In this document: positions 6,531 to 38,352 of the stretch, one piece after another
Layout: the number at the start of each line of letters is the position of its first letter
How positions within the stretch are numbered: the first letter of the stretch is position 1
NCBI GenBank assembly: GCA_964438295.1
Contig: CAYTKR010000004.1
Span: forward strand, 9,849 to 73,848
DNA from: an uncultured Anaerolineales bacterium
GTDB lineage: Bacteria; Chloroflexota; Anaerolineae; Anaerolineales; UBA11858
Direction: 5' to 3'
Length of the DNA stretch: 64,000 nt
Notes under the pieces: generated by a model
Database searches by the model: none
What the model saw: only the letters and a program-made list of their open reading frames with translations
Told to the model about the DNA's origin: nothing
Program-made: the position numbers and the translations under genes

Positions 6531-7931
6531 TTACTCCTCCACCAACGCCTTTTTCAACGCTTCCCTAAGCGACCTTACTTCCACCACTTCAATTCCTTTG
6601 GGCCACTTCTGGCCTTTACCAATTCGTCGGGGCACGACTGCTGTCTTGAAGCCCAGTTTTGCTGCCTCGCGCAATCGGGCTTCCATCTGGCCGACCATGC
6701 GCAGTTCACCAGACAGGCCCACTTCGCCGATGAGCACGGTGTCAGCCCGTACAGGGGCGTCCTTGACTGAAGATGCAATAGCGGCAGCGACGGCCAGGTC
6801 GGCGGCGGGTTCGCTGATCTTCAGGCCGCTGATCACGTTGACAAAGACGTCCTGTTCGGCCAGGCGGACTCCAACCCGGCGGCTGAGCACGGCAACATTC
6901 AGTAACAGGCGGTTGAAGTCGATGCCGTTGGGTGTACGGCGAGGGTTGCCAAAGGAGGTGTGGCTGGTCAGGCCCTGGATTTCGACCAGCAGAGGACGAG
7001 TGCCCTCCATAGTCACGGCGATAGCCGAGCCAGGGGCGTTGACCATGCGCTCGGCCAGGAAGGCCTCTGAGGGGTTGCTGACCTCGACCAGGCCGCGGTC
7101 GCGCATCTCGAAGACGCCTACCTCGGATGTGGCACCGTAGCGGTTCTTGACCGTGCGCAGCAGGCGGTATACCTGGAAGCGATCTCCCTCTAGATAGAGC
7201 ACGGCGTCGACGATGTGCTCCAATACGCGCGGCCCGGCGATGGTGCCTTCTTTGGTGACGTGCCCGATGATGAAGACAGTCACCCCGCTGGCTTTGGCCA
7301 ACTCTCTCAATCGAGAAGCCGTCTCGCGCACCTGGGTGACAGAACCGGCAGAAGATTCCAGTTGAGGGAGATAGGTGGTCTGGATGGAATCCACTACGAT
7401 CAGTTGGGGCTTTACCACCTCAATGTGCTCCAAAATGATATCCAGGTTGGTTTCGGTGACCAGGAAGAGATCATCAGGTAGATTGCTCTTCTCTTCACCT
7501 GATTCAGGAGACAGTAGCCGCATGGCGCGCATTTTGATCTGCCGGTCGGACTCTTCGCCGGAGATATACAAGACGGTGCCCTGGCTGGCCATTTCTAAGG
7601 TAGCCTGCAGCAAGAGAGTCGATTTGCCGATGCCAGGGTCGCCGCCGATGAGCACAACGGAGCCTGGGACGATGCCGCCGCCCAGAACCCGCGAGAACTC
7701 TTCGATGGGCACTGGGATGCGATCTTCGACATCGCCGGTGATTTCGGAGAGGCGCCTTGGGGTGGAGCGTTCTCCCATGCTGGGGCGGGCGTGCTTTGCA
7801 GATGGAGTGGTCTTTTCGATGGTCTCTGCGACCATGCTGTTCCAGGAATCACACTTGGGGCAGCGGCCCATTTGCCGGGGCGAAGTGCGCCCGCATTCCT
7901 GACAGACATATTGTGTATACGTTTTTGCCAT
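6531..7931 (-). CDS. radA: DNA repair protein RadA/Sms
   Basis: N-terminal zinc finger (YVCQECG..CPKC), Walker A GGDPGIGKSTLLLQ, the KNRYG motif, and a Lon-like C-terminal domain. Confidence 0.95.
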   Translation of the reverse strand: MAKTYTQYVCQECGRTSPRQMGRCPKCDSWNSMVAETIEKTTPSAKHARPSMGERSTPRRLSEITGDVEDRIPVPIEEFSRVLGGGIVPGSVVLIGGDPGIGKSTLLLQATLEMASQGTVLYISGEESDRQIKMRAMRLLSPESGEEKSNLPDDLFLVTETNLDIILEHIEVVKPQLIVVDSIQTTYLPQLESSAGSVTQVRETASRLRELAKASGVTVFIIGHVTKEGTIAGPRVLEHIVDAVLYLEGDRFQVYRLLRTVKNRYGATSEVGVFEMRDRGLVEVSNPSEAFLAERMVNAPGSAIAVTMEGTRPLLVEIQGLTSHTSFGNPRRTPNGIDFNRLLLNVAVLSRRVGVRLAEQDVFVNVISGLKISEPAADLAVAAAIASSVKDAPVRADTVLIGEVGLSGELRMVGQMEARLREAAKLGFKTAVVPRRIGKGQKWPKGIEVVEVRSLREALKKALVEE

Positions 7932-7986
7932 AATTTAAATTACCTGGTGTTTTTTGGAACGTTGAGCAAGACGGGGGGATTTCGGG

Positions 7987-8030
7987 AAAATAGGTGTGGG
8001 CAGCGCCTAGCCCCTGCCCACACCTATTTT
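7987..8030. terminator. 17-bp stem hairpin between the peptidase stop and the radA start
   Basis: AAAATAGGTGTGGGCAG-(10 nt)-CTGCCCACACCTATTTT. A/T runs on both sides would allow it to terminate in either direction. Confidence 0.6.
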
Positions 8031-8036
8031 CCCGGA

Positions 8037-9236
8037 TTAATTTAAGTCTCGCACCAGATCTCTAAGAGCGAGAGCAATATCAACCAGTTTGCTCGGGTCA
8101 ACGATATCGGGGTGATCTTTGGGGGTATGGGTGATATCCACAGCGAGTTGTTCCATGAATAGGCTGGATGTAATCGCCAACGCGGGCACCTGGTGTTGGA
8201 TAAACATGGAGTGATCGCTTTGATACCACTGAGCGCCCTCTTCGATCCCATTGTGAGGGGCAAAAGCCTTGTGAATGACATCAACGATTTCTGGCGGGGG
8301 ATTATAAAGCGAGTATGCTGTATCCCTGTCATGGTACCCGGCCCCATCCATGTTGACCGCCAGGAGGATCTCAGAGAATGTGTGCGACTGCGTTTGCAAA
8401 TAATGCATCTCTCCAGCCGCGGAGTAATAATCTTCACCGTTGACGGCCAGGATTTCAACCCCCAGTTTTCCTTCATATTCGGCTAGAAATTCAGCCAGAA
8501 GTAGTAAAATGACGATCCCCGTGCCGTTGTCGATTGCGCCTGGGGTGTTATCCTTGGCGTCGATATGAGCGACGAACACGACCCTGGGTTGAGTTGAGGC
8601 TCCCTTTTTAGCAATTACATTGCATCCTTTAGCTGGGGCGCGTTCAGCGTTGATCTCAATAGATACTTCTTCTCCCTCGAATTGTGCTAGACGGTCACCT
8701 TCGACATCCTTCATATATACAGAAGGGATATCGAAATCACCATCCTCGATCAGCGGGAAGGGATACATCCCGCCCGCCAGTTCTGGGTTGCGGGAGGTTG
8801 CCGCGATGATGGCAGCAGGTTTCTTCTCCTCGAGCAGGCGGACGATCTTCTGGTGGTGTTCAGGATTGTAGAAGATGAAATTTTTGGGCATCAACTGCTC
8901 ATTGGTGATCTCGCCTTTCAAGAGGATTATCTTCCCTTCGATTTCAGCAGATTCTAGCTCTTTAAAGGTGGAGATGACCACAAGCGGAGAGTCTTCCTTG
9001 CCTCCCAGAGTATAGGGGCTGACGAACGCATTGAATGACTCCCTGCCAGCAGAGAGCTGAGCGCCACCCTCCGACCAGTCGATGCAGTCGAATTCGGGTT
9101 TCGTTGTTTCGAAACCAAAAGAGCTGACAATTTCTGCGAACCACTGGGTGGCCTGACGATTTCCCTGGCTGCCGACCCGCCGGTTAGGGATTTCGAGACA
9201 TAGTTTATCGAGAAGGGATTTTGCCCTGGTGATCAT
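8037..9236 (-). CDS. M28-family aminopeptidase
   Basis: M28 zinc-ligand region VVFVAHIDAKDNTPGAIDNGTG and NGEDY. I prefer the ATG at 9236 (MITRAKS) because the track start, GTG at 9263, lies inside the clpC terminator hairpin. TATAAT sits about 9 nt upstream of the ATG, so the leader may be very short. Confidence 0.8.
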   Translation of the reverse strand: MITRAKSLLDKLCLEIPNRRVGSQGNRQATQWFAEIVSSFGFETTKPEFDCIDWSEGGAQLSAGRESFNAFVSPYTLGGKEDSPLVVISTFKELESAEIEGKIILLKGEITNEQLMPKNFIFYNPEHHQKIVRLLEEKKPAAIIAATSRNPELAGGMYPFPLIEDGDFDIPSVYMKDVEGDRLAQFEGEEVSIEINAERAPAKGCNVIAKKGASTQPRVVFVAHIDAKDNTPGAIDNGTGIVILLLLAEFLAEYEGKLGVEILAVNGEDYYSAAGEMHYLQTQSHTFSEILLAVNMDGAGYHDRDTAYSLYNPPPEIVDVIHKAFAPHNGIEEGAQWYQSDHSMFIQHQVPALAITSSLFMEQLAVDITHTPKDHPDIVDPSKLVDIALALRDLVRDLN

Positions 9237-9253
9237 AGAACCAATTATAAACG

Positions 9254-9294
9254 AACAGGGCACGGAAACCTGTTCGGGTATTCCGTGCCCTGTT
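9254..9294 (-). terminator. hairpin downstream of clpC
   Basis: 14-bp stem AACAGGGCACGGAA / TTCCGTGCCCTGTT with a 13-nt loop, about 65 nt after the clpC stop. Confidence 0.55.
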
Positions 9295-9358
9295 TAGTTT
9301 TATCGATTGCTCGGGCGAACACGGTCAGGAGACCTGTTCGAGCAGTGACTGCGATTGA

Positions 9359-11902
9359 CTAGGCCGCTACAATCTCTTCGGGTTCGTCCTCGGATGAGTC
9401 TGCTTTGCCTTCAGCAGGGAGCAAGACGATCTCAGGTTCATCGTCCTCGGTGGGCTCGATGTCCACCAGCACGGTATCTCCAAGGTCGAACTTTCCAGCC
9501 AGGATCGCGTCCGAGAGCGGTTCCTCGATTTTTTGCTGGATCACGCGTCGTAACGGACGAGCGCCCATGTCGGGGTCATAGCCCAGGTCTGCGATTAGGT
9601 CAATTGCCTCGGGGGTGATATCCATGCTGATAGCGTGTTCGACCAATCGTTCGGATACTTTGCCCAACTCCAGGCCAACGATCTCGCGGATATCTTCCTT
9701 GGCGAGCGCTTTGAAGACGATCACGCTATCCAGGCGGTTGATGAACTCAGGGCGGAAGAGGCGCTTGAGGGATTTCATCAGCTGCTTGCGCATTTTCTGA
9801 TACTCCTGGCGCTCTTCGGTTTCTTCGTCACGCTTGAGTTCGAAACCCAATCCGGTCTGGCGCTTGATCATATCGGCGCCGACGTTGGAGGTCATCACGA
9901 TGATGGCGTTACGGAAATCGACCTTGCGACCCTTGGCATCCGTGAGCTGGCCCTCTTCCATGATCTGCAGGAGCATGTTGTGAGCTTCGGGGTGGGCTTT
10001 TTCGATCTCGTCGAAAACGATAATTGAATAAGGTCGCCGACGGATTGCCTCGGTGAGTTGACCAGCTTCGTCGTAGCCGATATACCCAGGAGGGGCACCG
10101 ACCAGCCGGCTAACCGAATGTCGCTCCATAAACTCAGACATGTCCAACTGGATCAGGGCATCCTCGCTGCCGAAGAGGAAACGCGCCAGGGATTTGGTCA
10201 ATTCCGTTTTTCCGACGCCGGTGGGGCCAAGGAATACAAAAGTTCCAATAGGCCGACGGGGGTCTTTCAACCCAGCACGAGCTCGGCGGACGGCTTTTGA
10301 GATGGTCTCGATGGCTTCATTCTGACCGATGATGGAATGTTTTAGTTCATCCTCCATCAACAGCAAGCGCTCGGATTCTTCCTCGGCCATCTGCATCACC
10401 GGCACACCGGTCCACATGGCGACAACTTCAGCGATATCATCGGGTGTGACGTTGGGGCTGTTTTCTCGGTCCCAAGTTGTGCGCAACCGTTCGAGTTCGG
10501 CTTCGATTTCAGTGCGTTGTTTTTCCAAGCCTTGGATATCGGCTTCGAAGGCCTCACCTGCTGTATCTTCTTTGGCTTCGTCGACCTTTTTGCGGATATC
10601 CCTTAGTGCACTTGTTAATTTTTTTGTGGTCTCAGCGACAGGGCTTTTGTACATGCGTACGCGTGAGGCGGCTTCGTCGATCAGGTCGATGGCTTTGTCG
10701 GGTAAGAAACGGTCAGAAACATAGCGAGTTGACAGGTTGGTGGCCGATTCTAAGGCTTCGTCCAAAATGGATAGCTGATGGTGAGCCTCATAGGCCGGGC
10801 GAATGCCGCGCAAGATTTCGATGGTCTCTTCCGGACTGGGCTCTTCAACGAAGATGGGCTGGAAACGGCGCTCGAGAGCTGCATCACTCTCGATGTGTTT
10901 GCGATATTCATCAAGCGTGGTCGCGCCAATCACTTGCAATTCACCACGTGAGAGGGCGGGCTTCAAAATGTTGGCTGCATCCATGGCGGATCCAGCCGAA
11001 CCGGCCCCCACTAACATATGTACTTCGTCGATGAAAAGAATGGATTCTGATGTTTTAAGTTCTTGGATGACGCGCTTTAAACGGTCTTCGAACTGGCCAC
11101 GATACATGGTACCGGCGACCAAAGACCCCACATCGAGTTGCAGGAGGCGTTTGCCCAAAAGGGGGATGGGCACATCGCCCTCCAAAATCCTTTGAGCAAG
11201 ACCTTCGACAATGGCGGTCTTTCCAACGCCAGGTTCGCCGGTCAGGGCCGGGTTGTTCTTCGTCCGCCGAGCCAGGATTTGAACAACGCGCTCAATTTCC
11301 ATTTGACGACCGATGACCGGGTCAAGTTTGCCGTCTTCTGCCATCTGGGTCAGGTCGGTGGCAAGTTGGTCAACCAAAGGTGTCTTGGACTTAGATTTGC
11401 CCTTGCCTTCGGTTTCCTTTGCCTTTTGACGGCGTTGCTGCCGTCGCTCGCGTTGAGCGGACTTGGTTTCCTTGAGAATTCGATGAGTTTGGCGGCGAAC
11501 CTGCTCAGGCGTGACGCCTAACTGCCTTAAGGCATCGAGGGCGATGCCCTCATTGAGTTCGATAATTCCCAGGAGCAGGTGCTCGACACCAATATAATGG
11601 TGTCCGAGTTGACGGGCCTGCTCGACTGCCAGTTCGAGAACTTTCTGTGTGCCAGGGGAAAGGGTCGGTCGCCGGGTGGTGAATTCACCTAATCCAACCA
11701 TTCTTTCTATTAGATCTTGTACCCGGTCGAATTCCAGGCCGAGTTCGCGCAGAACACGCCCGGCAATACCACCGTCTTCCAGCATCAAACCTAAGAGAAG
11801 GTGTTCAGTTCCAATATGACTGTGCCGCATTCGCTCGGCTTCTTCGTGGGCCAAGCTAAGTACCCGCCTCGCTCTTTGTGTAAATCGTTCCATGTTAGAC
11901 AT
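9359..11902 (-). CDS. clpC: ATP-dependent Clp protease ATP-binding subunit ClpC
   Basis: Double Clp_N repeat (HIGTEHLLLGL and YIGVEHLLLGI), two Walker A sites (GEPGVGKT and GPTGVGKT), and a UVR-like middle region. The start was moved to the ATG at 11902 (MSNMERF), which has AGGAGG 7 nt upstream. Confidence 0.95.
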   Translation of the reverse strand: MSNMERFTQRARRVLSLAHEEAERMRHSHIGTEHLLLGLMLEDGGIAGRVLRELGLEFDRVQDLIERMVGLGEFTTRRPTLSPGTQKVLELAVEQARQLGHHYIGVEHLLLGIIELNEGIALDALRQLGVTPEQVRRQTHRILKETKSAQRERRQQRRQKAKETEGKGKSKSKTPLVDQLATDLTQMAEDGKLDPVIGRQMEIERVVQILARRTKNNPALTGEPGVGKTAIVEGLAQRILEGDVPIPLLGKRLLQLDVGSLVAGTMYRGQFEDRLKRVIQELKTSESILFIDEVHMLVGAGSAGSAMDAANILKPALSRGELQVIGATTLDEYRKHIESDAALERRFQPIFVEEPSPEETIEILRGIRPAYEAHHQLSILDEALESATNLSTRYVSDRFLPDKAIDLIDEAASRVRMYKSPVAETTKKLTSALRDIRKKVDEAKEDTAGEAFEADIQGLEKQRTEIEAELERLRTTWDRENSPNVTPDDIAEVVAMWTGVPVMQMAEEESERLLLMEDELKHSIIGQNEAIETISKAVRRARAGLKDPRRPIGTFVFLGPTGVGKTELTKSLARFLFGSEDALIQLDMSEFMERHSVSRLVGAPPGYIGYDEAGQLTEAIRRRPYSIIVFDEIEKAHPEAHNMLLQIMEEGQLTDAKGRKVDFRNAIIVMTSNVGADMIKRQTGLGFELKRDEETEERQEYQKMRKQLMKSLKRLFRPEFINRLDSVIVFKALAKEDIREIVGLELGKVSERLVEHAISMDITPEAIDLIADLGYDPDMGARPLRRVIQQKIEEPLSDAILAGKFDLGDTVLVDIEPTEDDEPEIVLLPAEGKADSSEDEPEEIVAA

Positions 11903-12141
11903 GGCACTACCTCCTAAAACTATTAATGAGCGGGTGATCAAATAACCAAATATTTGGTTTCACAGGATCTCTAATCCAATTGTATAGTTGTTTTGGGTCA
12001 GTGATCCCTTACATCCTACTTTCAACTTCTACTCGCAGTTTTCAATTCTACCAGAGTTAGTCCGATTTGAATCTCAGGGGAGTGAATTCTTATAAATATC
12101 TAATGCGTTTTGAATTTTCTGGAAATTGGTTGAGATGAAAA

Positions 12142-12165
12142 AGGCGCACCTGATTAGGTGCGCCT
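12142..12165 (-). terminator. intrinsic terminator of rpsA
   Basis: AGGCGCACC-taatca-GGTGCGCCT, followed by TTTTTCATCTC on the minus strand. Confidence 0.7.
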
Positions 12166-12180
12166 GGAAGTGTCTTTGAC

Positions 12181-13752
12181 TTACTCTTCTTCGGGTTCCG
12201 GTTCTTCTGCCTCCGCCTCAGTATCTTCGGCGTCCTCGGCATCTGGTTCTTCGGCATCATCAGGAGTATCTGACTCGGGTTCCTCAGCTTCAGTTTCGGG
12301 TTCTTCTTCGGCTGCTTCCTCATCAGCTTTTACTTCAGTCTCCTTCGCATCGGCATCCGCTTCGTCTGCTTCAGCTTCTGCTTCGGCATCAATTTCTTCT
12401 TCGACCTCTTCCGTCTCGGATACCTCCACTGCTTCAACAACCGTCTCTGTTTCTGCCTCGATTTCTTCGGCTTGTGCTTCGACAACAGGTTCTTCAGTCT
12501 TTTCAGCTACAACGTCTGCTTCCGCTTCTTCGTCATAGGGAGATTCGAAGGTGGAATCTACTTCTTCTTTGACCATCTTCCAATCCAGGTCGATGTAGGC
12601 CCCTGAGTCTACCTTGCGCAAGCTGAGACCGATGCGGAACTTCTCACGGTCGATGTTGATGATGCGCAGGGTCAGGGTATCACCTACTTTGACGACCTCT
12701 TTGGGATGCTCAACCCGGTCAGGGCTCAATTCAGAGATGTGGATCAGACCTTCGAGGTCGCGCTCACCCAATTTGGCGAAGGCGCCAAAGTCGGTGAGAT
12801 GAGTGATGGTACCTTCAATGAGTTGACCTTCTTTGAGATCCTTTATTTTGACCAGCCAGGGGTTTTCCTGGAGCTGACGGATGGAAAGACCGATGCGCTT
12901 GCGTTCCTGATCGAGGCTGATGACTTTGACCTCGACTTCTTGCCCGATCTTGAGGACATCTTTTGGATGCTTGATGCGTTCCCACGAGATCTCAGACAGG
13001 TGAACCAAGCCGTCGGCGCCATCGATATTTACGAAGGCACCAAAGTTGGCCAGGCTGGTAACACGACCCTTGCTGACCGTACCAACAGCGAGTTCATCCA
13101 AAAGGCGGTCTTTGAGGGTCTCACGGGTTTCATTCAGTGCCTTGCGTTCTGAAAGGATCAGACGGCGGCGAGAGCGATCAACCTCGATGACGGTAACCTC
13201 TATGGGTTCACCGATCAACTTGCCCCAGCGTGTCTCAGGGGAGTCACCAGTCGTGCGACGGGTCAGGCTAATCTGTGAGCCAGGGACAAAACCGCGCAAT
13301 TTGCCAATTGGAACGAGAAGCCCACCTTTATTGAATCCGGAAATATGACCTTCATAGCCATCACCAGATTCTTTCAACTGTTCAACGAGTTCCCAATCGA
13401 GTTCCTCTTGCGCGCGAGTGAAAGAAACAGTCAGGTTTCCACTGCGGTCTTCGGGTGTTAGGACATACACCTTAATTGGTTGCCCAACTTCAAAACTTTC
13501 CAAGATCTCAGTATCAATTTGGTCAAGTTCTCTTCCAGCGATGATTCCTTCAGATTTTGCACCAATGCTGACCAGGATTTCAGAATTCGAGATGGCGGCG
13601 ATTACTCCTTCTCTCATTTCTCCGGACTTGGGCAAATCGATGTCTAAGCCCTGCTCATCGAGCAGTTCTTCCATCGATGGTTGGGGTTCGGGCGCTTCTT
13701 CTACTTCTTCCTCAACAATGTTTTCTTCAACGAGAGCTTCACTATCTTTCAT
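12181..13752 (-). CDS. rpsA: 30S ribosomal protein S1 with a long acidic C-terminal tail
   Basis: Four S1 domains with repeated G.V..(L/I)..FGAF(V/A).L/I..(G)L(V/I)H(I/L)SE(I/L)S patterns. A tail of about 115 aa made almost only of E/A/D/T/V follows. Confidence 0.9.
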   Translation of the reverse strand: MKDSEALVEENIVEEEVEEAPEPQPSMEELLDEQGLDIDLPKSGEMREGVIAAISNSEILVSIGAKSEGIIAGRELDQIDTEILESFEVGQPIKVYVLTPEDRSGNLTVSFTRAQEELDWELVEQLKESGDGYEGHISGFNKGGLLVPIGKLRGFVPGSQISLTRRTTGDSPETRWGKLIGEPIEVTVIEVDRSRRRLILSERKALNETRETLKDRLLDELAVGTVSKGRVTSLANFGAFVNIDGADGLVHLSEISWERIKHPKDVLKIGQEVEVKVISLDQERKRIGLSIRQLQENPWLVKIKDLKEGQLIEGTITHLTDFGAFAKLGERDLEGLIHISELSPDRVEHPKEVVKVGDTLTLRIINIDREKFRIGLSLRKVDSGAYIDLDWKMVKEEVDSTFESPYDEEAEADVVAEKTEEPVVEAQAEEIEAETETVVEAVEVSETEEVEEEIDAEAEAEADEADADAKETEVKADEEAAEEEPETEAEEPESDTPDDAEEPDAEDAEDTEAEAEEPEPEEE

Positions 13753-13873
13753 CTTGATTATTCATACACTCCAGGTTTATAGGATCGACGTTACATTATA
13801 AGGGCTAAGGGATAACTTGGCAACCTTTGTGGTAAGATTGTCGGGAACTTTTAATATAGAGAGAAATAAATCA

Positions 13874-14959
13874 ATGCCAACCATTTACCCCTTTACAGCG
13901 ATAGTCGGCCAGGAGCGCATGAAGCGTGCGCTAATTTTGAATGCAGTTTCTCCCCGAATTGGTGGAGTTTTGATCCGTGGCGAGCGCGGTACGGCAAAAT
14001 CGACAGCAGCGCGAGCTTTGGCCGCTTTGCTACCTCAAGTCAAAGTGATCAGCCAGTGCCGCTTTGGATGTGACCCTGAACGTTCGCATACTTGGTGCAC
14101 GGAATGCCGGGAACGCGCCGATCAAGAATTTGAGATGCGCACGACTCCTTTCGTGAACTTACCTGTTTCTGCGACAGAGGATCGTGTCGTTGGCACTCTG
14201 GATATCGAGAAGGCAATTCAAAAAGGTGAGCGACATTTTGAACCAGGTGTGTTAGCAGCAGCCAACCGGGGTTTGCTGTATATTGATGAGGTCAACCTTC
14301 TGGATGATCATGTGGTGGACCTCTTGCTGGATTCTGCAGCGATGGGCATGAACATTGTCGAGAGGGAGGGCATCTCCTTCAGCCACCCGGCGCGCTTCAT
14401 TTTGGTAGGGACCATGAATCCCGAGGAGGGGGATCTGCGCCCACAGTTATTGGACCGTTTCGCCTTGTCCGTAGATATCTCTGGTATCCGATCCCCACAA
14501 GAACGTGTCTTTATCATGGAGCGCAACCTGGCATTTGAGTCTGATGCCGATGGTTTCCGCGATCAATGGATCGACAAAGAGCAAGAACTTTCGGAAAGAA
14601 TCAAACGTGCCCGCCAACTCGTCGGGCATGTGAAATACACTCGCAGGGATTTACTCTCGATAGCTGCCCTGAGCGCGTCTTTGAATGTCGACGGTCATCG
14701 TTCTGACCTGGTGATCCTCAAAGCGGCGCGCGCTCATGCTGCCTTTGAGGGGCGTACCCAAGTCACCGAGCGAGATATCGCCCTGGCGGCAGAGTTGGCA
14801 TTCCCACACCGCATCAAGCGTGGCCCTTTCGATCAGGCGGATATTGGCTTCGACGAATTACAAGAGCGCATTGAACAGTTGCAAGGGGCTTCAGCTCCTT
14901 TAGAAGAACGCCAGCCTGGTTCCGACGATCAAGCAGTCGACGAAAAAAAAAAGCCGTAG
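13874..14959 (+). CDS. ChlI/BchI-like AAA+ ATPase (Mg-chelatase I-subunit family)
   Basis: MPTIYPFTAIVGQERMKRALILNAVSPRIGGVLIRGERGTAKST matches the ChlI N-terminus and Walker A. Walker B is LLYIDEVNLLDDH. I prefer the ATG at 13874 over the track TTG at 13817. Confidence 0.9.
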   Translation: MPTIYPFTAIVGQERMKRALILNAVSPRIGGVLIRGERGTAKSTAARALAALLPQVKVISQCRFGCDPERSHTWCTECRERADQEFEMRTTPFVNLPVSATEDRVVGTLDIEKAIQKGERHFEPGVLAAANRGLLYIDEVNLLDDHVVDLLLDSAAMGMNIVEREGISFSHPARFILVGTMNPEEGDLRPQLLDRFALSVDISGIRSPQERVFIMERNLAFESDADGFRDQWIDKEQELSERIKRARQLVGHVKYTRRDLLSIAALSASLNVDGHRSDLVILKAARAHAAFEGRTQVTERDIALAAELAFPHRIKRGPFDQADIGFDELQERIEQLQGASAPLEERQPGSDDQAVDEKKKP

Positions 14960-14973
14960 CTGACAACGTCAGC
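14947..14973 (+). promoter_or_regulatory. candidate -1 programmed frameshift cassette (A_AAA_AAG heptamer, 5-nt spacer, 6-bp hairpin)
   Basis: The zero frame reads GAA AAA AAA AAG CCG TAG. The heptamer is at 14947-14953 and the hairpin GCTGAC-AAC-GTCAGC at 14959-14973. The -1 frame is open from 14875 into the VWA ORF. Confidence 0.4.
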
Positions 14974-15024
14974 GAGGAAAAAGAAGAATCAACCCGCGCA
15001 CCTGCCGAACCTGCCAAGCAGGAT

Positions 15025-15909
15025 GTGTTCGACTCGGTATCTTCGAACTGGTGGGATGGGGGGGAGAAAGTCAAACCAAGCGAAGCCTTTGATGCAAGGA
15101 AACTTGAGACACAGCTGGACCGTCTCTCACGGCGGCGCAGCGGCCGACGATCGCGCACGCGCACCGAGCGTAAGCGCGGCCGCTATATCCAATCTCGTCC
15201 TGCTCAAGGCAAAACCTCCGATATTGCCTTCGATGCCACCATTCGCGCTGCGGCTCCATACCAAAAAGAGCGCCAGGAGCAGCGCAAAGAAGTGGCTTTC
15301 GCCATCCGGCCCCAAGATTTGCAGCAGAAAGTACGTGTCAAGCAGACAGCCAATTTGGTGATGTTTGTGGTTGACGCCTCATGGTCTATGGCGGTTGCTG
15401 AACGTATGGCAGCTACGAAGGGTGCCATCCTCTCCTTGCTGACCGACGCCTACCAACGACGAGATCGTGTAGGGCTGATCGTCTTTCAAAAAGATCGCGC
15501 CACACTGATCCTTCCGCCGACCAATTCGGTACAGTTGGCTCAGCATGCCCTTACCGATATTCCCGTGGGTGGAAAGACTCCCTTAGCAGCAGGTTTGTTC
15601 CTGGCTCATCAAGTCATTCAACAGCAGAGCATGATCTATCCCGATGTCGAACCACTGATGATCATGCTTACTGATGGGGCCGGCAATGTCTCTATGGGGG
15701 ATCAACCTCCCCAAGAGGAAGCGCATAAATTGGCTGAGAAGATTGCCCTGGATGAGATCCGTAGCGTGGTGATCAATATGGAACACGCTGCCTTCGACCA
15801 GGGTTTGGCCCAAGAGTTAGCCAATCACCTCGACGCACCTTGTTATACACTGCACGAACTCAAAGCGGAGACGCTGTATCAGGCTGTACGGGATGAGATG
15901 GACTCATAA
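15025..15909 (+). CDS. VWA-domain protein equivalent to the C-terminal half of ChlD/BchD
   Basis: Basic segment RRRSGRRSRTRTERKRGRYIQSRP, then DATIRAAAPYQ and the MIDAS motif VVDASWSM. The track start is GTG with no convincing SD. The same frame is open 150 nt further upstream. Confidence 0.85.
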   Translation: MFDSVSSNWWDGGEKVKPSEAFDARKLETQLDRLSRRRSGRRSRTRTERKRGRYIQSRPAQGKTSDIAFDATIRAAAPYQKERQEQRKEVAFAIRPQDLQQKVRVKQTANLVMFVVDASWSMAVAERMAATKGAILSLLTDAYQRRDRVGLIVFQKDRATLILPPTNSVQLAQHALTDIPVGGKTPLAAGLFLAHQVIQQQSMIYPDVEPLMIMLTDGAGNVSMGDQPPQEEAHKLAEKIALDEIRSVVINMEHAAFDQGLAQELANHLDAPCYTLHELKAETLYQAVRDEMDS

Positions 15910-29815: not shown

Positions 29816-30715
29816 TTAATAATTCGTCACCATATCGATCATGCCGCGCTCTCGAGCGCGGTGTTCGCACCAAAAAAAGATCACTGCGGCGAGCACGGCA
29901 AAGACGGCTGTCAGACCCAGCAGGATGCCCATCAGTTGGGCATTATTGAATCCCGAAAGGGTGGGAAAGGCCTCAGCAACAGAGCCAACTAGAGAGCGTC
30001 TCAACAGCTCCAGCCAGTAGGTGATTGGCATGAAAAAGCCCACCGGGCGCAAGAATTTGGGCAGCACCTCCAGCGGGAAGATGGCGCCACTGAAAAGGTA
30101 TAGCGCCCCTGCAGTGATATCGCCAATGAACCAGACGTGTTGTGCGATCAGCAAGGTGATCCCAGCCAGCATGAGTCCCATCATCGCCAGCATGATCACC
30201 CCAATAAACAAGGATAGAAAGAACAACCCCCAGTTCACCTCGGCCAGTTCGATCTGTATATGGAGGAAGGCAACGCCGAATAAGATCGTGATCAGCACCG
30301 AGATCGAAGAGACAATGAAGCGTGCTACACCTCTACCGAGCAAATAGGTTGGCATGTGGATGGGAGCGACGTACATATACTTGAGAGTTTTGTAATGCTC
30401 GCGGTCGTCGATCACCGCCCATGAGATGCCGGTCATCACCCCCCCCACATACATGTAGAACGCATTCCCCAAGTAGATGTAGGGGAAGATCGGCGTATCG
30501 AAGTTCCCATTGGTGATGATGCTGTACATAACCACCAGGATAGCCGCACCTGCGAGCGGTTTGGCGATGGAGTAGATTGCGAAAAGGAATGGATCTGTCC
30601 AGTTAGATTCGATCTGCCACCCCAGCCAGGCGGCGATGCGGAAGGTGCGTGTGAAGGTGCTGCGATCAGGGATTAGGGATTGGAGATTAGTAATTGTTGA
30701 TTTGCTTGCTTGCAT
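29816..30715 (-). CDS. ABC-2 type transporter permease
   Basis: Polytopic membrane protein. I prefer the start MQASKST at 30715, because the track start overlaps the upstream permease. Confidence 0.75.
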   Translation of the reverse strand: MQASKSTITNLQSLIPDRSTFTRTFRIAAWLGWQIESNWTDPFLFAIYSIAKPLAGAAILVVMYSIITNGNFDTPIFPYIYLGNAFYMYVGGVMTGISWAVIDDREHYKTLKYMYVAPIHMPTYLLGRGVARFIVSSISVLITILFGVAFLHIQIELAEVNWGLFFLSLFIGVIMLAMMGLMLAGITLLIAQHVWFIGDITAGALYLFSGAIFPLEVLPKFLRPVGFFMPITYWLELLRRSLVGSVAEAFPTLSGFNNAQLMGILLGLTAVFAVLAAVIFFWCEHRARERGMIDMVTNY

Positions 30716-30726
30716 TGTTGCCCTTT

Positions 30727-31611
30727 CTACCTCCTGCTTTCCGTCAGCCGGCCTTCGCGGATGGCTAATTTTTCCATGTACGATAGGAGCAGTTTGGCCG
30801 CGGTGAGAAAGATCACACACAGGATTGCGAGGATGCCCATTTCTACTGTCACGCTAAGAAAACCCAGAGCGGCCCCAGATGGGAATACTAATTGACGCAT
30901 CGCATCCAACCCCAAGGTTAGAGGGATGATTGATGCGGTCGCTGCTACCCAGATGTTGAAGCTCTTGATGGGGAAGTAGAACCCCGAAAACAGGTATACT
31001 GGCTCCTGGGCAAGGTTGGACAGATGCCAAGCTTCGCGACTTAGGAGTAAGAACAGCGAGGCGAATAACATGCCCATGCCGTATAACGCCACCATCGCTA
31101 AGGTGAAAACTAGGAAGAGTTGACCAAAACTGGCTACAGCGTAGGGAATCTTGAAGACCCAACTTCCCAGGATGGTGATGGCCAAGGCTCTCAATGTGGT
31201 GGCTACCAGACCCCCGAGCGCCATCCCCAGTAGGATCGCCATCATCGAGTTGGGTGCCATAATGTATAAAGACAGGTTGCCCATCTCTTTTTCCCAATAA
31301 AGTTGGCTGGACATACTCCAAAGTACATTCATCCAGAAAGCCGTCATCGCTCCGCCCATAACTACAAAGCCGACATACTCATCCGGCGCGTCAATAGCCC
31401 GGTAGACAAACACATATGCTGAAACGGCCAACATGGGCAGTAATATATCGAAGATCATCCACGACTTCTCGCGCTGCTGCCCAATGATGCGCGGGTAAGC
31501 GCGCGCAATCACAGTTTGGAAGAACAACTTTACGCCCGTATTCTTCTCAAGCTGCTGACTGTTGTCAGCGGACAGCGTTCTGTCGTCTGCTGTCTGTGGT
31601 CTATTGCTCAC
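30727..31611 (-). CDS. ABC-2 type transporter permease
   Basis: Polytopic membrane protein. The likely start is GTG at 31611 (VSNRPQTADD), overlapping the ATPase stop by 11 nt. The track start at 31704 would lie inside the ATPase gene. Confidence 0.75.
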   Translation of the reverse strand: MSNRPQTADDRTLSADNSQQLEKNTGVKLFFQTVIARAYPRIIGQQREKSWMIFDILLPMLAVSAYVFVYRAIDAPDEYVGFVVMGGAMTAFWMNVLWSMSSQLYWEKEMGNLSLYIMAPNSMMAILLGMALGGLVATTLRALAITILGSWVFKIPYAVASFGQLFLVFTLAMVALYGMGMLFASLFLLLSREAWHLSNLAQEPVYLFSGFYFPIKSFNIWVAATASIIPLTLGLDAMRQLVFPSGAALGFLSVTVEMGILAILCVIFLTAAKLLLSYMEKLAIREGRLTESRR

Positions 31612-32605
31612 CCGCTTCCACCTCCTCCATGCTGCGACCCACCAGGTCGACGAAGACATCTTCCAAGGTAGGTTCGCGCTTCTGCAGGTTGAGGATATGC
31701 ACATCGTTGGAGGTCATCATGTTGACCACTCCACCCAGAGCGTCGTCTTTCTCAAGGATCAGGTCCAATTCGGCAGAGCCATCTTTGGGAGCATGAACCA
31801 CTTTCCTCACTCCGGGCAACCCTTCGAAGGAATCCACATTCAGCCCGTTCAGGGGGCTGACCTCCATCTTGAAGATGGCATCCTGTTGAAGTCGGCGTTT
31901 CAAATTGGCAGGTTTATCACAGGCCAAAACTCGCCCTTCGTTGATGATCGCCACGCGGTCGCACAGTTCGTCGGCTTCGACCATATAGTGCGTGGTCAGC
32001 AGCAGGGTACGGCTACGGTCTTCGTCAATCCAATCGCGTATGAAACCGCGTACGTCACGCGATGCGCCCACATCGAGGCCCAGGGTTGGTTCGTCCAGGA
32101 AAAGTACATCGGGATTGGTCATAAAGCCGCGCACGATATTCATCTTTTGGCGCAGGCCGGTGGAGAGATCAGACGATTTGGTGTTCATACGGTCTCCAAG
32201 ACCGACAACCTCGAGCAAGTGCTTGATGCGCCGATTAGCCTCCTTGGAGGGGATGCCATAAAACTGGCTGAACATCCAAAGATTTTCGCGCACGGTGAGC
32301 AAGCCATACCCAGATGACTCGCCCCCTGAGACCATATTGATACGAGCGCGTACCTTTGGGGGGTCCTTGATGACATCGAAACCGCTAACACAGGCCTGGC
32401 CGGTAGTAGGCGCCAGCAGGGTTGTTAGGATCTTGATTAACGTGGTCTTGCCCGCCCCATTAGGACCCAGTAGCCCAAACAATTCTCCTTGGGGAATTTC
32501 CAGATCGACCTTGCGCAGGGCTTCTAGTTCCTTGGGGTCAGATTTCTTACCACCGCGAATCTTGTAGATTCGCCCTAGGTTTTTTGTGTGAATGGCTGAG
32601 TTCAT
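31601..32605 (-). CDS. ABC transporter ATP-binding protein
   Basis: Walker A GPNGAGKTT, signature LSTGLRQK, Walker B VLFLDEPTLGLD. Confidence 0.9.
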   Translation of the reverse strand: MNSAIHTKNLGRIYKIRGGKKSDPKELEALRKVDLEIPQGELFGLLGPNGAGKTTLIKILTTLLAPTTGQACVSGFDVIKDPPKVRARINMVSGGESSGYGLLTVRENLWMFSQFYGIPSKEANRRIKHLLEVVGLGDRMNTKSSDLSTGLRQKMNIVRGFMTNPDVLFLDEPTLGLDVGASRDVRGFIRDWIDEDRSRTLLLTTHYMVEADELCDRVAIINEGRVLACDKPANLKRRLQQDAIFKMEVSPLNGLNVDSFEGLPGVRKVVHAPKDGSAELDLILEKDDALGGVVNMMTSNDVHILNLQKREPTLEDVFVDLVGRSMEEVEAGEQ

Positions 32606-34241: not shown

Positions 34242-37200
34242 ATGTCATTCGTCCATCTCCATACCCACACAGAATATTCCTTGCTCGATGGCTTTAGCAA
34301 TATCAAGAAGCTGGTTCAGCGCGCTGCAGAATTGGAGATGCCCGCCTTGGCGATCACCGATCATGGCACCATGTTCGGCGCGATCGATTTCTATAATGCA
34401 GCCACGGATGCTGGCATCAAACCTGTGATTGGGTTGGAAGCATATATGGCAGCTCGGCGGATGACCGACCGGATTGCCCAATACGACAAGAAGTCATCGC
34501 ATTTGTTGCTCTTAGCCCAAAACCAAACCGGGTATCAGAATCTGTTGAAGATTGCCTCTGCTGCCCAGTTGCAAGGCTTCTATTATTTCCCACGTATTGA
34601 CCACGAATTCCTGGCCGACCATGCTGAAGGGCTGATCTGCACATCAGGTTGCATGGCGGCCGAGATTCCCCGTTTGATCAATCTCGGTGATCTCGAGGGA
34701 GCCCGAACCAAATTAGATTGGTATTACGACGTCTTCGGGGCGGAGAATTTCTATCTCGAACTCCAGGAGCACGAAATTCCAGAGTTGCATAATATCAACA
34801 AAGCCCTGCTGGAACTTGGCCCGCGCTACAACGCTCGCTATGTAGCTACCAACGATGTCCACTACATCAACCCTTCTGATGCGGAGTTGCAGGATATCTT
34901 GTTGGCTGTGCAGACCGGCTCACTTTTGACCGATCCCAAGCGCATGCGCATGTCCGATAGCACGTACTATCTGAAAAGTGCTGAAGAGATGAGTCGAATC
35001 TTTGCCGAAGTTCCCGAAGCGCTTACCAACACGCTGCTCATCGCTGAGCGCTGCGAAGTCGATTTAGGATTCAAAGGTTACCGCCTGCCCGATTTCCCTG
35101 TTCCCGAAGGCTATGATACGCAATCATATTTGCGAGAGTTATGTGAGCGCGGCCTGGAATGGCGCTACAGTTCCAACGCGCAAAACGAAGTTTATCAGGA
35201 GCGCCTGAATTACGAACTCGAGATCATTCACACCATGGGCTTTGATGCCTACTTCTTGATTGTTTGGGATTTATGCCAATACGCCAAGAAGCAAGGGATC
35301 TGGTACAACGCCCGAGGCTCTGCGGCGGGTTCGATTGTGGCCTACGCCTTGGAGATCACTCTGGTTGATCCCATCGAGCATGAGCTGATTTTCGAGCGTT
35401 TCCTCAACCCCGGGCGCGTCTCCATGCCCGATATCGACCTGGATTTCCGAGACGACCGTCGTGCTGAGATGATGGAATACACCGCTCACAAATACGGCGA
35501 TGACAAGGTTGCCCAGATCATCACCTTTGGCACCATGAAAGCCCGCGCTGCCATCCGCGATGTCGGGCGTGTCAAAGATATCCCCATCAACGAAGTCGAC
35601 CGCATTGCCAAACTGATCCCCGCCATCCCAGGGAAGCCTGTAACAATTGAACAGGCGCTGGAAACCGTTCCTGAATTCAAGCAGGCATACAAATCTACGG
35701 CTTACATACAAGATTTAATCGATACAGCCATGGGGATGGAAGGTGTGGTCCGGAATGCTGGGACTCATGCTGCGGGAGTGGTGGTCACAGATAAGCCCAT
35801 TATTGAGTATTTACCTCTCCACCGGCCTACTGGCTCAGCACAGGATAGCCCGGTCAAAACTGTTACTCAGTTCGAAATGTCAGTCATCGACGAACAGGGC
35901 TTGCTCAAGGTCGATTTCCTGGGCCTCTCCACGCTGACGGTGATGGCCCGGGCATGCGACCTGATCAGAGAACGGCACGGGGTTAAGCTCAACCTCAATA
36001 ATATTCCCTTAGATAACCCTGAAACGTACGAGCTCCTTGGGCGTGGTGAGACAGCCGGGGTTTTCCAGGTTGAAGGGGCTGGGATGCGGCGCAACCTGGT
36101 GCAGATGAAGCCGAAGAACCTGGATCATGTGATCGCCATGGTAGCCCTCTTCCGCCCTGGGCCGATGGATTTCATCCCTAGCTATATCAAACGTATGCAT
36201 GGCCAGGAAGAGATCGAATACCTGCACCCCGAGTTAGAGCCGATTTTGGGGGAAACCTACGGAATTACGGTCTATCAGGAGCAAATCATGTACACGGCCA
36301 TGAACATGGCTGGGTACACGGCTTCCGAAGCGGATTTTTTGCGCAAAGGCGTCGCCAAGAAAAAAGCCGATGTGCTCTTGCAGCAGCGTAACCGCTTTGT
36401 GGGTGGAGCAGTCGAGAATGGCGTTTCAGAAGAGGTTGCCAACAAAATCTTCGATAATTGGGAAGCCTTCGCCCGTTACGGCTTCCCCAAAGGCCATGCC
36501 GCCGATTATGGCGTTATCGCAGTGCAAACCGCGTATCTCAAAGCCCACTACCCTGTTGAGTATATGACGGCGCTGCTTTCGGTTGAGTTGAACAATTCCG
36601 ACAAAGTCGCTGCTTATGTTGCCGACTGTCGTCGGATGGGCATAGATGTCTTGCCGCCGGATATCAACTCCAGTGCCTGGGATTTCACAATAGAAGACGA
36701 GAGATTAGAAACTGAAGACGGAAGTGAGGTCGATCCTCGGCTTGACCAGAGTGATGACGAAGAGTCTCCCGACTCTGGTCAAAGTATCCGATTTGGATTA
36801 GGCGCGGTCAAGAATGTTGGGCATGGACCAGTAGATACATTGCTAGAAGCTCGTAAAGAAGGCCCCTTTGACGACCTCGACGACTTTATCCGGCGAGCCG
36901 ATTTGCGCAAAGTCGGCAAACGTGCCCTGGAATGTCTGATCAAAGTAGGGGCTTTAGATGTCTTTGGTACACGCCCGGCTTTATTCGATGCCCTCGACCG
37001 GATCGTCTCCATTAGCTCGTCCTATTTTGCAGCTGCCGATTCTGGGCAAATGACCATGTTTGGGCCGGGAACCGGTCTGGACGAAAGTATCGAATTGCCC
37101 GCTTTCAATGCCGAAGTCACTCGCCGCGAACAGCTCGATTGGGAGCGCGAGTTAATTGGTCTCTATGTTTCTGATCACCCCCTCAGCACGGTGATGGAAG

Positions 37201-38255: not shown

Positions 38256-38352
38256 CCCTAACATGTTCAGGGTACTCGGGCTGCTAAAAACAAGAAGACT
38301 CACCACGAAGACACGAAAACAGAAAGGGGGCAATTCGTGTCTTGATGTTTTT

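Follow-up and report, generated by a model that had tools for sequence, protein, structure and literature searches.

A cluster of frameshifted magnesium-chelatase genes of the chlD type, which carry a -1 shift (fs-genes), was reported and tested by Antonov et al. in NAR in 2013 (PMC3711429). Mg-chelatase cassettes from other taxa gave 63, 40 and 10 % shifted product in E. coli for A11, A9 and A7 runs, respectively (PMC3711429). Frameshifted chelatase genes were reviewed by Atkins et al. in 2016, with A_AAA_AAR under purifying selection (PMC5009743), and Kuznetsov et al. in 2022 listed fs-chlD genes of Anaerolineae that lack a large subunit; some Anaerolineae have both fs-chlD and chlI (PMC9227772). 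The rationale is that, where there is no separate chlI, one fs-chlD gene makes both subunits. A 2020 paper by Antonov in MBE reportedly also deals with fs-chlD, or frameshifted magnesium-chelatase, genes. The earlier note on the DNA studied here knew of no description of recoding for chelatase I/D pairs, but it was described and tested in 2013 (PMC3711429), reviewed in 2016 (PMC5009743) and listed for Anaerolineae in 2022 (PMC9227772).

A second parallel is dnaX. Transcriptional slippage at a 9-nt homopolymer is known for dnaX of Thermus thermophilus, and Chlorobi have a two-ORF dnaX with A7-A10 runs (PMC3711429, PMC5009743).

Our locus lies in a 64-kb stretch of Anaerolineales DNA, the whole of which was analyzed and is called the window. 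As in published fs-chlD genes, two adjacent ORFs of ~1 kb are found, with a Mg-chelatase AAA+ ORF first and an otherwise-annotated ORF 3' of it in the -1 frame. Also shared are a poly-A or A_AAA_AAR shift site with the zero-frame stop directly after it, a long product that would be a ChlD-type medium subunit, a short product that would be a ChlI-type small subunit, and, with the Anaerolineae members, the lack of a large subunit, here within the window. Nothing essential sets the locus apart from this class, and its Anaerolineales lineage was not found by name in the accessible fs-chlD literature. We consider it likely (probability about 0.87) that the two ORFs, ORF1 and ORF2, are parts of one recoded gene that belongs to the known fs-chlD class (family TIGR02442, putative cobaltochelatase / ChlD). 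We infer that the locus shifts frame in its own host.

Two overlapping reading frames

The zero frame holds the following features.

13874..14959, + strand: ChlI-like AAA+ ORF (ORF1); 361 aa, ~40 kDa; ends DEKKKP-TAG
13979-14005, + strand: Walker A, GERGTAKST, within ORF1
14273-14302, + strand: Walker B, LLYIDEVNLL, within ORF1
14943..14952, + strand: A10 homopolymer (G-A10-G), the putative conserved recoding tract
14947..14953, + strand: A_AAA_AAG heptamer in X_XXY_YYZ phase, inside A10; possible ribosomal -1 slip site
14957..14959, + strand: zero-frame stop TAG, 2 codons past the A10 tract

ORF1 is a complete ChlI-like AAA+ module. It has Pfam matches to Mg_chelatase, AAA_5 and AAA_lid_2 and, like BchI, covers nearly the whole BchI-ChlI profile (TIGR02030, positions 1-324 of 337). 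Its ATG at 13874 lines up with the starts of homologs; the mechanical ORF start is a TTG at 13817.

In the -1 frame, a TGA at 14872-14874 is followed by an open stretch from 14875 to a TAA at 15907-15909, which gives these features.

14875..14959, + strand: overlap in which the zero and -1 frames are both open; 85 nt; the shift must fall inside it
14953..15909, + strand: -1-decoded part, with an acidic/Pro-rich linker and a ChlD-type VWA/MIDAS domain; 318 aa
15007-15036, + strand: motif EPAKQDVFDS, in the -1-decoded part
15025..15027, + strand: GTG, gene-caller start of the VWA ORF; first start codon in frame past the stop at 14872-14874
15049-15063, + strand: motif WWDGG, in the -1-decoded part
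15133-15186, + strand: motif RRSGRRSRTRTERKRGRY (RRSGRR..), in the -1-decoded part
15232-15264, + strand: DATIRAAAPYQ (AAPxQ segment), in the -1-decoded part
15373-15387, + strand: MIDAS DASWS, in the -1-decoded part
15667-15687, + strand: motif LTDGAGN, in the -1-decoded part

All sequence statements of the earlier note hold. ORF1 ends GAC GAA AAA AAA AAG CCG TAG inside the A10 run, with the TAG at 14957-14959; A_AAA_AAG at 14947-14953 is in the slippery phase; from 14875 on, the -1 frame is free of stops and reads into the VWA ORF; and the downstream ORF carries RRSGRRSRTRTERKRGRY, DATIRAAAPYQ and the MIDAS motif. After a slip, the -1 reading is ..DEKKK-AVADNVSEEKEESTRAPAEPAKQD-VFDSV...

Standard decoding would yield the 361-aa ChlI-like AAA+ ATPase, terminated by the TAG just past A10. 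Some decoding events would switch to the -1 frame at the tract. By a ribosomal route, tRNA-Lys would re-pair on A_AAA_AAG; by a transcriptional route, RNA polymerase would stutter and add one A to the mRNA. Both routes would lead to the identical protein, ..DEKKK-AVADNV..., a 678-aa ChlD-like subunit in which the acidic/Pro-rich linker and then the VWA/MIDAS domain follow the same AAA+ module. Short and long products would presumably co-assemble in an I/D-type AAA+ motor complex, and tract length would set their ratio.

The conceptual -1 fusion (678 aa, ~76 kDa) scores 793.3 bits on NCBIfam TIGR02442 "putative cobaltochelatase," a hypothetical equivalog with a curated cutoff of 779.45, and its match extends unbroken over profile positions 1-640 of 641. 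The separate halves score 509.9 and 275.2, both below the cutoff, and only the fusion passes. Each of the best 120 matches in the database consists of one in-frame ORF (636-736 aa) with 63-79 % identity over the full length, and in-frame relatives have a conserved KKK island within an otherwise variable linker. ORF1 and ORF2 are thus halves of one family-level protein.

Gene callers nevertheless annotate the locus as two genes. If this annotation were correct, a ChlI-like gene would be followed by an independent short VWA gene translated from the GTG at 15025, by initiation or termination-reinitiation. An AGGA directly upstream of the GTG and a 9/12 promoter-like match at 14960-14989 are in keeping with such an arrangement. 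However, the AGGA ends 1 nt upstream of the GTG, which is poor spacing, and it is the only such element, in line with the earlier note's description of a GTG that lacks a properly spaced SD. Promoter-like matches occur at chance (3 found versus 1.7 expected), and nothing above chance was found for an internal promoter or terminator between the ORFs. From 14875 up to this GTG, the -1 frame has no other ATG, GTG or TTG. The conserved linker segment EPAKQ is upstream of the GTG, similarity to in-frame homologs starts at the tract, and, as noted, neither half alone reaches the family cutoff. The GTG at 15025 is probably not the functional start, and most orthologs have no start codon before the WWEGG and GRRS motifs. 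We regard two independent genes as very unlikely.

The A tract in Anaerolineales orthologs

We compared 74 distinct, close orthologous loci from Anaerolineales. Shared synteny (RadA, ClpC and S1, divergent from chlD) shows that these loci are true orthologs. Frame state was scored by the frame of the WW.GG motif; two loci, L034 and L132, have extra frame breaks. Among the 74, a -1 shift is needed in 57, 11 are in-frame, and 3-5 need +1, of which three are clean (L038, L138 and L151) and two dubious. The +1 minority could be errors; L038 comes from an 'MFD...' MAG. Such MAGs, which also supplied L034, are presumably long-read assemblies.

The junction has an A7-A11 tract in 73 of the 74 distinct loci, and 76 of 78 close loci have such a tract in the corresponding place. 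The run is A9-A10 in 47 of 55 intact -1 orthologs. The base that follows it may be C, G or T, and thus the G of A_AAA_AAG is not conserved. By this comparison, the conserved element is the A7-A11 homopolymer and not A_AAA_AAG specifically. The earlier note had asked whether orthologs keep the tract and the overlapping -1 frame, which they do, and whether they keep the heptamer and a hairpin that follows it; here the base after the run varies and the hairpin is not conserved.

The adjacent zero-frame stop is conserved as well. It lies 1-8 codons past the tract, mostly 1-2, and within 1-3 codons in most -1 loci. In several orthologs the overlap is just 13-16 nt, essentially the A tract itself. 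Because the -1 frame is closed directly upstream of the tract in these loci, the shift site is pinned to the tract.

In 49 of 58 -1 loci, more than 10 codons, and as many as 124, separate the tract from the first ATG, GTG or TTG in the VWA frame. Such late starts fall beyond the conserved EPxxQxVF, WWEGG and GRRS motifs. Judged from these positions, independent initiation of the VWA half is not possible in most orthologs.

In-frame orthologs keep the same tract and have an alternative-frame stop 0-2 codons past it, an arrangement that is new relative to the accessible fs-chlD literature. Also new relative to that literature is the finding of at least 11 switches of frame state along the ortholog tree. 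In one ortholog, L123, the tract is replaced by an in-phase C_CCA_AAA heptamer.

Within the window, A10 is the sole run of A or T of at least 8 bases. AAAAAAG occurs 11 times versus 12.3 expected, and dinucleotide-preserving shuffles give 1.15 expected A9 matches per window. The heptamer, an A9 run and the hairpin are each at chance level within the window and were therefore not used as evidence. The signal rises far above chance by its position, exactly in the 85-nt overlap where the two halves of one protein family meet, and by being conserved from species to species.

Homopolymers are error-prone in sequencing, in-frame close relatives exist, and some odd loci (L034 and L038) come from the MAGs mentioned above. 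An assembly or sequencing error would mean that the true tract is A11 (or A8) and the gene a plain in-frame ChlD. Five independent assemblies of the window's own sequence, from five SRA runs, all have A10, with 0 mismatches over 733-900 nt; because they agree, A10 is not an assembly error, and the tract length whose verification the earlier note had proposed is reproduced. The -1 state is also the majority state: the 57 of 74 distinct orthologs that have it come from many projects and vary in tract length and flanks. Moreover, the nearest in-frame relative has A10 too; what separates it is an indel next to the tract and not the length of the run. An error of this kind is hardly credible.

Because homopolymers are slippery for DNA polymerase too (PMC3711429), the tract might instead be a contingency locus for phase variation, or the remains of a decayed fusion gene, with -1 as the OFF state of the VWA half. 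The 11 or more frame-state switches, and the 1-nt indel at the tract that separates in-frame from -1 orthologs, would fit this explanation. However, 57 of 74 lineages are out-of-frame in the same way with an intact VWA ORF of at least 300 codons at 64-76 % identity, which is not expected of an OFF or decaying state. The same A10 consensus is present in five independent samples, and the product is a cytoplasmic AAA+ protein rather than a surface antigen. DNA-level variation or pseudogenization is therefore improbable.

A single recoded gene remains the preferred reading. The proposal of the earlier note, that the zero frame of one AAA+ coding region yields a short I-type product and a -1 shift a long one of D type, has strong support from the ortholog comparison and from published experiments on homologs. 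The locus would represent a well-conserved case of two AAA+ machine subunits made from one gene in a ratio set by a homopolymer, parallel to dnaX.

Possible ribosomal and transcriptional slippage

The earlier note had proposed a dnaX-type cassette, in which the heptamer is followed by a hairpin.

14959..14973, + strand: hairpin GCUGAC-AAC-GUCAGC; 6 bp; 5 nt after the heptamer; -9.6 kcal/mol

The heptamer is in phase, and the hairpin (GCTGAC-AAC-GTCAGC) is indeed present 5 nt past it at 14959-14973. As a dnaX-type cassette this is incomplete: an upstream SD-like element is missing, and the hairpin is at chance level and not conserved. The 30 nt before the shift site contain no GGAG, GAGG, AGGA or AGGAG. 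For the hairpin, z is -1.27, and folds at least as stable arise in 22 of 200 shuffles; 26 % of 40-nt windows from the same gene also fold as well. It is not conserved in A9-A10 orthologs, and L143, which has the same GAA AAA AAA AAG CCG-stop context, lacks it. The hairpin at 14959..14973 is probably incidental.

When the 40 nt 3' of the tract were folded in 30 and then 68 loci and compared with same-gene windows, no general structure was found (median percentile 0.74), and the hairpin was rejected as a conserved stimulator at long tracts. Compared with the remainder of the same gene, sequences downstream of A9-A11 tracts are on average less structured, with a median z of +0.7 to +1.0. Short-tract orthologs have stabler downstream structure (median -11.4 kcal/mol versus -5.4 and -4.2; Mann-Whitney p ~1e-4). 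This association of downstream hairpins with short rather than long tracts is new with respect to the accessible fs-chlD literature.

The resemblance to E. coli dnaX (tau/gamma) is nonetheless considerable. Both have an in-phase A_AAA_AAG heptamer and two products with a common N-terminal AAA+ module, one of which is extended at the C terminus, and in both a complex presumably requires the two in a fixed ratio. The polarity is reversed, however, in that the shift here yields the longer product; dnaX-like polarity exists among the in-frame chelatase orthologs. Our locus also differs in lacking an upstream SD-like stimulator, in having a hairpin of 6 bp that is neither above chance nor conserved, and in having its heptamer within an A10 run.

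A strictly ribosomal -1 PRF of the E. coli dnaX type, with a slip on A_AAA_AAG stimulated by the GCUGAC-AAC-GUCAGC hairpin, is a plausible mechanism to which we give somewhat less than even odds. The heptamer and hairpin are suitably placed, the run is in X_XXY_YYZ phase in all A7 orthologs, short-tract orthologs have the stabler downstream structure described above, and the literature names the phenomenon PRF (PMC5009743). Because L123 has C_CCA_AAA in place of the tract, ribosomal PRF is probably used in part of the family. The missing SD-like stimulator, the chance-level hairpin, its absence from the identical tract context of L143, the low structure downstream of A9-A11 tracts and the variable base after the run all argue against a strictly ribosomal mechanism. 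Furthermore, nine or more A's are an efficient site of RNA-polymerase slippage (PMC5009743), and shift efficiency in E. coli rose with run length (PMC3711429). Orthologs occur in -1, +1 and in-frame states, a mixture that Antonov et al. 2013 took as the criterion for transcriptional realignment, although the few +1 loci could be errors. No tRNA genes were found in the window, where tRNA-Lys was sought to judge the slipperiness of AAG.

Because the run is A10, RNA-polymerase slippage is at least as likely here as ribosomal slippage. We put mainly transcriptional slippage at slightly better than even odds as the source of the shift at A10, and mainly ribosomal slippage just short of even; the two may act together. 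The dnaX genes of T. thermophilus and Chlorobi are similar in having a homopolymer of at least 9 bases with nearby alternative-frame stops, orthologs that differ in whether the long or the short product depends on the shift, and long tracts that lack conserved RNA structure. They differ in belonging to another gene family, and A7 and C_CCA_AAA chelatase orthologs point to a ribosomal contribution in part of our clade. Heterogeneous mRNA for any chelatase gene was not found in the literature.

A broader scheme is speculative and, in our judgment, rather unlikely as a whole. Rather than a classical ribosomal frameshift site, the A tract of the Anaerolineales clade might be a place where RNA polymerase stutters in either polarity, with the long or the short product in frame. 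Its role in setting the ratio between I-type and D-type subunits might be why it was kept through at least 11 frame flips. Ribosomal PRF would then be confined to short-tract or C_CCA_AAA orthologs with hairpins, and the orphan I/D pair, conserved beside S1/ClpC/RadA with no large subunit, would have some role besides inserting metal into tetrapyrroles.

Genomic context and function

As the earlier note had remarked, the window has no ChlH/CobN-like large subunit. Its sole ORF above 900 aa (1337 aa, 34242-38255) was considered as CobN/ChlH by size and rejected, because it is DnaE. The window also contains no second chlI, no tetrapyrrole genes, and no cobalamin riboswitch or other Rfam family. 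Because a large subunit, tetrapyrrole gene and cobalamin riboswitch are all absent from the window, the functional argument for an I:D pair is one carried over from distant homologs. The role of an I/D motor in anaerobes that lack ChlH/CobN, and the question of ribosome versus polymerase, are both raised by the 2016 and 2022 papers (PMC5009743, PMC9227772).

The locus would best be annotated as one recoded gene with products of ~40 and ~76 kDa, and not as "Mg-chelatase ChlI" plus "VWA domain protein." Automated pipelines split the chelatase gene in two for most members of the clade.

Like BchI/BchD (ChlI/ChlD) of Mg-chelatase and the ChlID-type small and medium subunits that work with CobN in aerobic cobaltochelatase, the gene encodes an AAA+ module, an acidic/Pro-rich linker, and a VWA domain with MIDAS (DxSxS) and AAPxQ. 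In contrast to Mg-chelatase and cobaltochelatase systems, the locus has no ChlH/BchH/CobN beside it in the 64-kb window. The fusion also differs from BchD-ChlD proper in that it scores 455.3 on that equivalog (TIGR02031), below the cutoff of 499.55, whereas it exceeds the TIGR02442 cutoff. Among named relatives, uncultured Anaerolineales/Anaerolineae MAGs come closest, at ~80 % identity.

A chelatase gene divided at an adenine tract

The ChlI-like AAA+ ORF (ORF1) and the downstream VWA/MIDAS ORF (ORF2) meet at a run of ten adenines. The recoding site at this junction is real and conserved, and it represents a further member of a published, experimentally supported class, the frameshifted chlD-type chelatase genes (fs-chlD). 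ORF1 ends GAC GAA AAA AAA AAG CCG TAG, and the junction comprises the following features.

Features of the junction (window coordinates)
13874, +: ATG start of ORF1, which aligns with homolog starts (mechanical start TTG at 13817)
14957-14959, +: TAG stop of ORF1
14943-14952, +: A10 homopolymer, the sole A or T run of at least 8 bases in the 64-kb window
14947-14953, +: A_AAA_AAG heptamer, in X_XXY_YYZ phase
14959-14973, +: hairpin GCTGAC-AAC-GTCAGC
14872-14874, +: TGA in the -1 frame (the frame of ORF2), after which no stop occurs until TAA at 15907-15909

The earlier note had described the ORF1 end, the A10 run, the heptamer phase, the hairpin, and the open -1 frame, and all proved exact on recheck. 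On its own, each of the heptamer, the A-run, and the hairpin is statistically ordinary within the window. AAAAAAG occurs 11 times versus 12.3 expected, and dinucleotide-preserving shuffles of the window contain an expected 1.15 A9 matches. The folding of the hairpin (-9.6 kcal/mol, z = -1.27) is matched by 22 of 200 shuffles. What carries the case, therefore, is where the signals lie and what other genomes show.

A conceptual -1 fusion, made by reading nucleotide 14953 twice, has 678 amino acids (about 76 kDa). It scores 793.3 bits on the NCBIfam model TIGR02442 "putative cobaltochelatase" (curated cutoff, 779.45) and spans profile positions 1-640 of 641 in a single stretch; the separate halves score 509.9 (ORF1) and 275.2 bits (ORF2). 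Pfam assigns Mg_chelatase, AAA_5, and AAA_lid_2 to ORF1, and VWA_2/VWA to ORF2. The best 120 matches to the fusion in a collection of 5.8 billion proteins are single in-frame ORFs of 636-736 amino acids, 63-79% identical over their full length, mostly from Anaerolineae/Chloroflexota and named "magnesium chelatase subunit D" or "putative cobaltochelatase." Across the homolog alignment, the linker varies strongly apart from a KKK island, which coincides exactly with the window's A-tract. These protein comparisons indicate that ORF1 and ORF2 are one gene. ORF1 alone matches positions 1-324 of 337 of the BchI-ChlI profile and is thus a complete small-subunit-like module. [quoted passage not shown]

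The earlier note took recoding of such I/D pairs to be undescribed, a belief that earlier publications on fs-chlD show to be incorrect. Annotation had split frameshifted chelatase genes into two neighbours, each about 1 kb long, and chelatase cassettes in E. coli gave 63% (A11), 40% (A9), and 10% (A7) shifting (Antonov 2013, PMC3711429). A section of the review by Atkins et al. 2016 (PMC5009743) covers the chelatase case, with "A_AAA_AAR ... under strong purifying selection." Kuznetsov et al. 2022 (PMC9227772) report fs-chlD genes of both -1 and +1 types, and Anaerolineae fs-chlD genomes that lack the large subunit and the CHL/B12 pathways. The remaining interest lies in transcription versus translation as the level of slippage, in a frame state that changed repeatedly while the tract stayed in place, and in the orphan function.

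The junction in orthologous loci

Starting from the fusion aligned with 31 homologs, the junction was surveyed in 80 loci from GTDB species representatives, 80 from metagenome contigs, and a further set found by exact protein look-up. Frame states were assigned first by tblastn of the N- and C-terminal parts, then from the frame in which the conserved WW(E/D)GG motif is read. With close orthologs defined by at least 64% identity in the N-part, this gave 74 distinct loci.

Frame of the VWA part relative to the AAA+ part (distinct close loci)
-1, as in the window: 57/74
In-frame: 11/74
Clean +1: 3/74 (L038, L138, L151)
Extra frame breaks: 2/74 (L034, L132)
Unclear: 1/74

Tract length (intact -1 loci)
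A9: 34/55
A10: 13/55
A8: 3/55
A7: 4/55
A-run of at least 6 absent: 1/55 (L123)

Together with the TIGR02442 score of the fusion, the -1 majority strongly supports the proposal that a -1 shift joins the ChlI-like ORF to the VWA ORF. An A7-A11 run is present at the junction in 73 of the 74 loci (76 of 78 before dereplication). The zero-frame stop in -1 loci lies 1-8 codons past the tract, mostly 1-2. The shift site is pinned down by L020, L027, L029, L051, and L080, in which the -1 frame is closed directly upstream, because the overlap of 13-16 nt is essentially the tract alone. Among the more distant relatives (<64% identity; Streptomyces, Dehalococcoidia, methanogens, and others), all 66 are in-frame, and an A-run of at least 6 is missing from 57. 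In-frame and frameshifted genes are true orthologs, as judged by synteny: chlD follows RadA, ClpC, and S1, which lie on the other strand. In-frame orthologs L081-L091, L001, L003, and L004 retain an A7-A11 tract. The +1 state of L038 (an "MFD..." MAG, presumed long-read), at an A9-A10 tract, may be erroneous; L138 and L151, also +1 at an A9-A10 tract, are metagenome contigs whose platform is not stated.

Independent initiation of the VWA part would be a rival to recoding. The window's VWA GTG has no properly spaced SD, as noted earlier (AGGA lies just 1 nt upstream), and the window's -1 frame contains no ATG, GTG, or TTG ahead of this GTG at 15025. As a general mode, independent initiation is excluded by start-codon positions in -1 orthologs. 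The first ATG, GTG, or TTG in the VWA frame is >10 codons past the tract in 49 of 58 -1 loci, and in L027, L106, L166, L032, L110, L080, and L122 it is 85-124 codons past, beyond the conserved EPxxQxVF, WWEGG, and GRRS segments. The similarity of -1 loci to in-frame homologs starts right at the tract. Between ORF1 and ORF2 there is no terminator, and no promoter above chance.

An assembly error in the A10 run is ruled out by independent assemblies. Several SRA runs, each assembled on its own, yielded contigs that encode exactly the ORF1 (361 amino acids, ending KKKP) and ORF2 proteins of the window. Five such contigs (SRR31802802, SRR24302411, SRR24302418, SRR8146441, and SRR24302424) all carry A10 and match the window without a single mismatch over 733-900 nt. 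L081, the closest in-frame relative, is 85% identical in its N-part and has A10 too; it differs by a 1-nt indel right beside the tract and not in run length. Neither pseudogenisation nor simple phase variation fits the orthologs: the out-of-frame state is the majority one, shared by 57 of 74 distinct lineages, and -1 lineages have diverged to 64-80% protein identity, yet their VWA ORFs are intact and conserved.

On a neighbour-joining tree of orthologs, the frame state changed at least 11 times, and the tract was kept in every state. In-frame orthologs have an alternative-frame stop 0-2 codons past the tract in nine of ten distinct cases; in L085 and L082 this stop is the homologous TGA that ends the short ORF in L018. 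Since the tract is kept in all states and these stops accompany it in in-frame orthologs, it appears to be used both ways, and apparently works in both polarities, like dnaX. In-frame chlD orthologs share the polarity of E. coli dnaX, in that slippage would give the short product.

Slippage by the ribosome or by RNA polymerase

Ribosomal and RNA-polymerase slippage would yield one identical protein. For this A10 tract, we put RNA-polymerase slippage at about 55%, and -1 slippage by the ribosome at a little under even odds.

Ribosomal slippage is favored by the A7 tracts, all of which are in X_XXY_YYZ phase, and by L123, which has an in-phase C_CCA_AAA heptamer in place of poly-A. The AAA+/VWA linker of L123 (Ga0105097_10000408) reads ACC CCC CCA AAA GCA TAA, with C_CCA_AAA preceded by C7 and a stop one codon later, which suggests that the type of slippery site switched within the orthologous clade. 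Also in favor of the ribosome, downstream structure is far more stable at short tracts (A7-8, n = 8) than at long ones. Median downstream MFE is -11.4 kcal/mol for A7-8 (z -0.82), -5.4 for A9 (z +0.7), and -4.2 for A10-11 (z +1.0); the short- versus long-tract comparison gives a Mann-Whitney p of about 1e-4, a statistic that ignores kinship. Tract length thus looks to be traded off against downstream structure. At 5-8 nt past the tract, the A7-A8 orthologs L025, L044, L040, L109, and L166 have GC-rich stem-loops of -11 to -19.5 kcal/mol, such as the CGCCGG-N6-CCGGCG of L025 and L044. These exceed their own-gene background only in L025, L044, L109, and L166 (0.01-0.09), and not in L040 (0.40-0.48).

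In favor of RNA-polymerase slippage at long tracts, bacterial slippage is efficient at 9 consecutive A or T bases, and the RNAP hybrid spans 9-10 bp (PMC5009743); in E. coli, chelatase-cassette efficiency also rose with run length (PMC3711429). RNA after A9-A11 tracts is less structured than the gene average, and no SD-like stimulator lies upstream of the tract in the window. Moreover, the orthologs include -1, +1, and in-frame states, and Antonov 2013 took such a mixture as the criterion for transcriptional realignment (PMC3711429). The dnaX-type cassette of the earlier note is upheld for its in-phase A_AAA_AAG, and weakened by the z-score of its hairpin and by the missing upstream element. 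The comparison of orthologs that it had proposed supports the tract and the -1 state; the base after the A-run is not conserved, which also favors RNA polymerase, and the hairpin is missing in L143 despite an identical GAA AAA AAA AAG CCG-stop context.

Gene neighbourhood and other features of the window

Neighbours of the chlD-like gene
Upstream, opposite strand: RadA, M28 peptidase, ClpC, S1
Downstream in the window: S10 and M55 peptidases

The window (6531-13752, -) and L082-L086 share the order RadA, (M28 peptidase), ClpC, S1, with the chlD-like gene running divergently. Genes after chlD vary across loci (S10 peptidase, CitMHS transporter, M1 peptidase, aminotransferase); thus, there is no conserved operon partner. 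A search of the 64 kb agrees with the earlier observation that the window has no ChlH/CobN-like large subunit, and a 1337-aa ORF considered as CobN/ChlH is DnaE. The 64-kb window also contains no second chlI, no Rfam family (cobalamin riboswitches included), and no tRNA gene. An active AAA+ motor of the I/D type would fit the intact Walker A (GERGTAKST), Walker B (LLYIDEVNLL), and MIDAS (DASWS ... LTDGAGN) motifs.

The neighbouring multi-S1-domain protein (12181-13752, -; 523 amino acids) has an extremely acidic, low-complexity C-terminal tail of about 110 amino acids, rich in Glu, Ala, Thr, and Asp, whose complementary strand reads as a spurious Ser-rich ORF (12158-12538). Three successive ORFs of about 330 amino acids at 29816-32605 (-) (29816-30820, 30727-31704, and 31601-32605) overlap by about 100 nt each, and these overlaps may reflect only over-extended starts. 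The first contains a C8 run (30439-30446), the window's only other homopolymer of at least 8 bases. DnaE (34242-38255, +) and a GH114 glycoside-hydrolase ORF (38203-39177) share 53 nt, the end of the former with the mechanical start of the latter. A 706-aa ORF at 48709-50829 (+) joins FG-GAP repeats to a C-terminal sortase domain, an unusual fusion.
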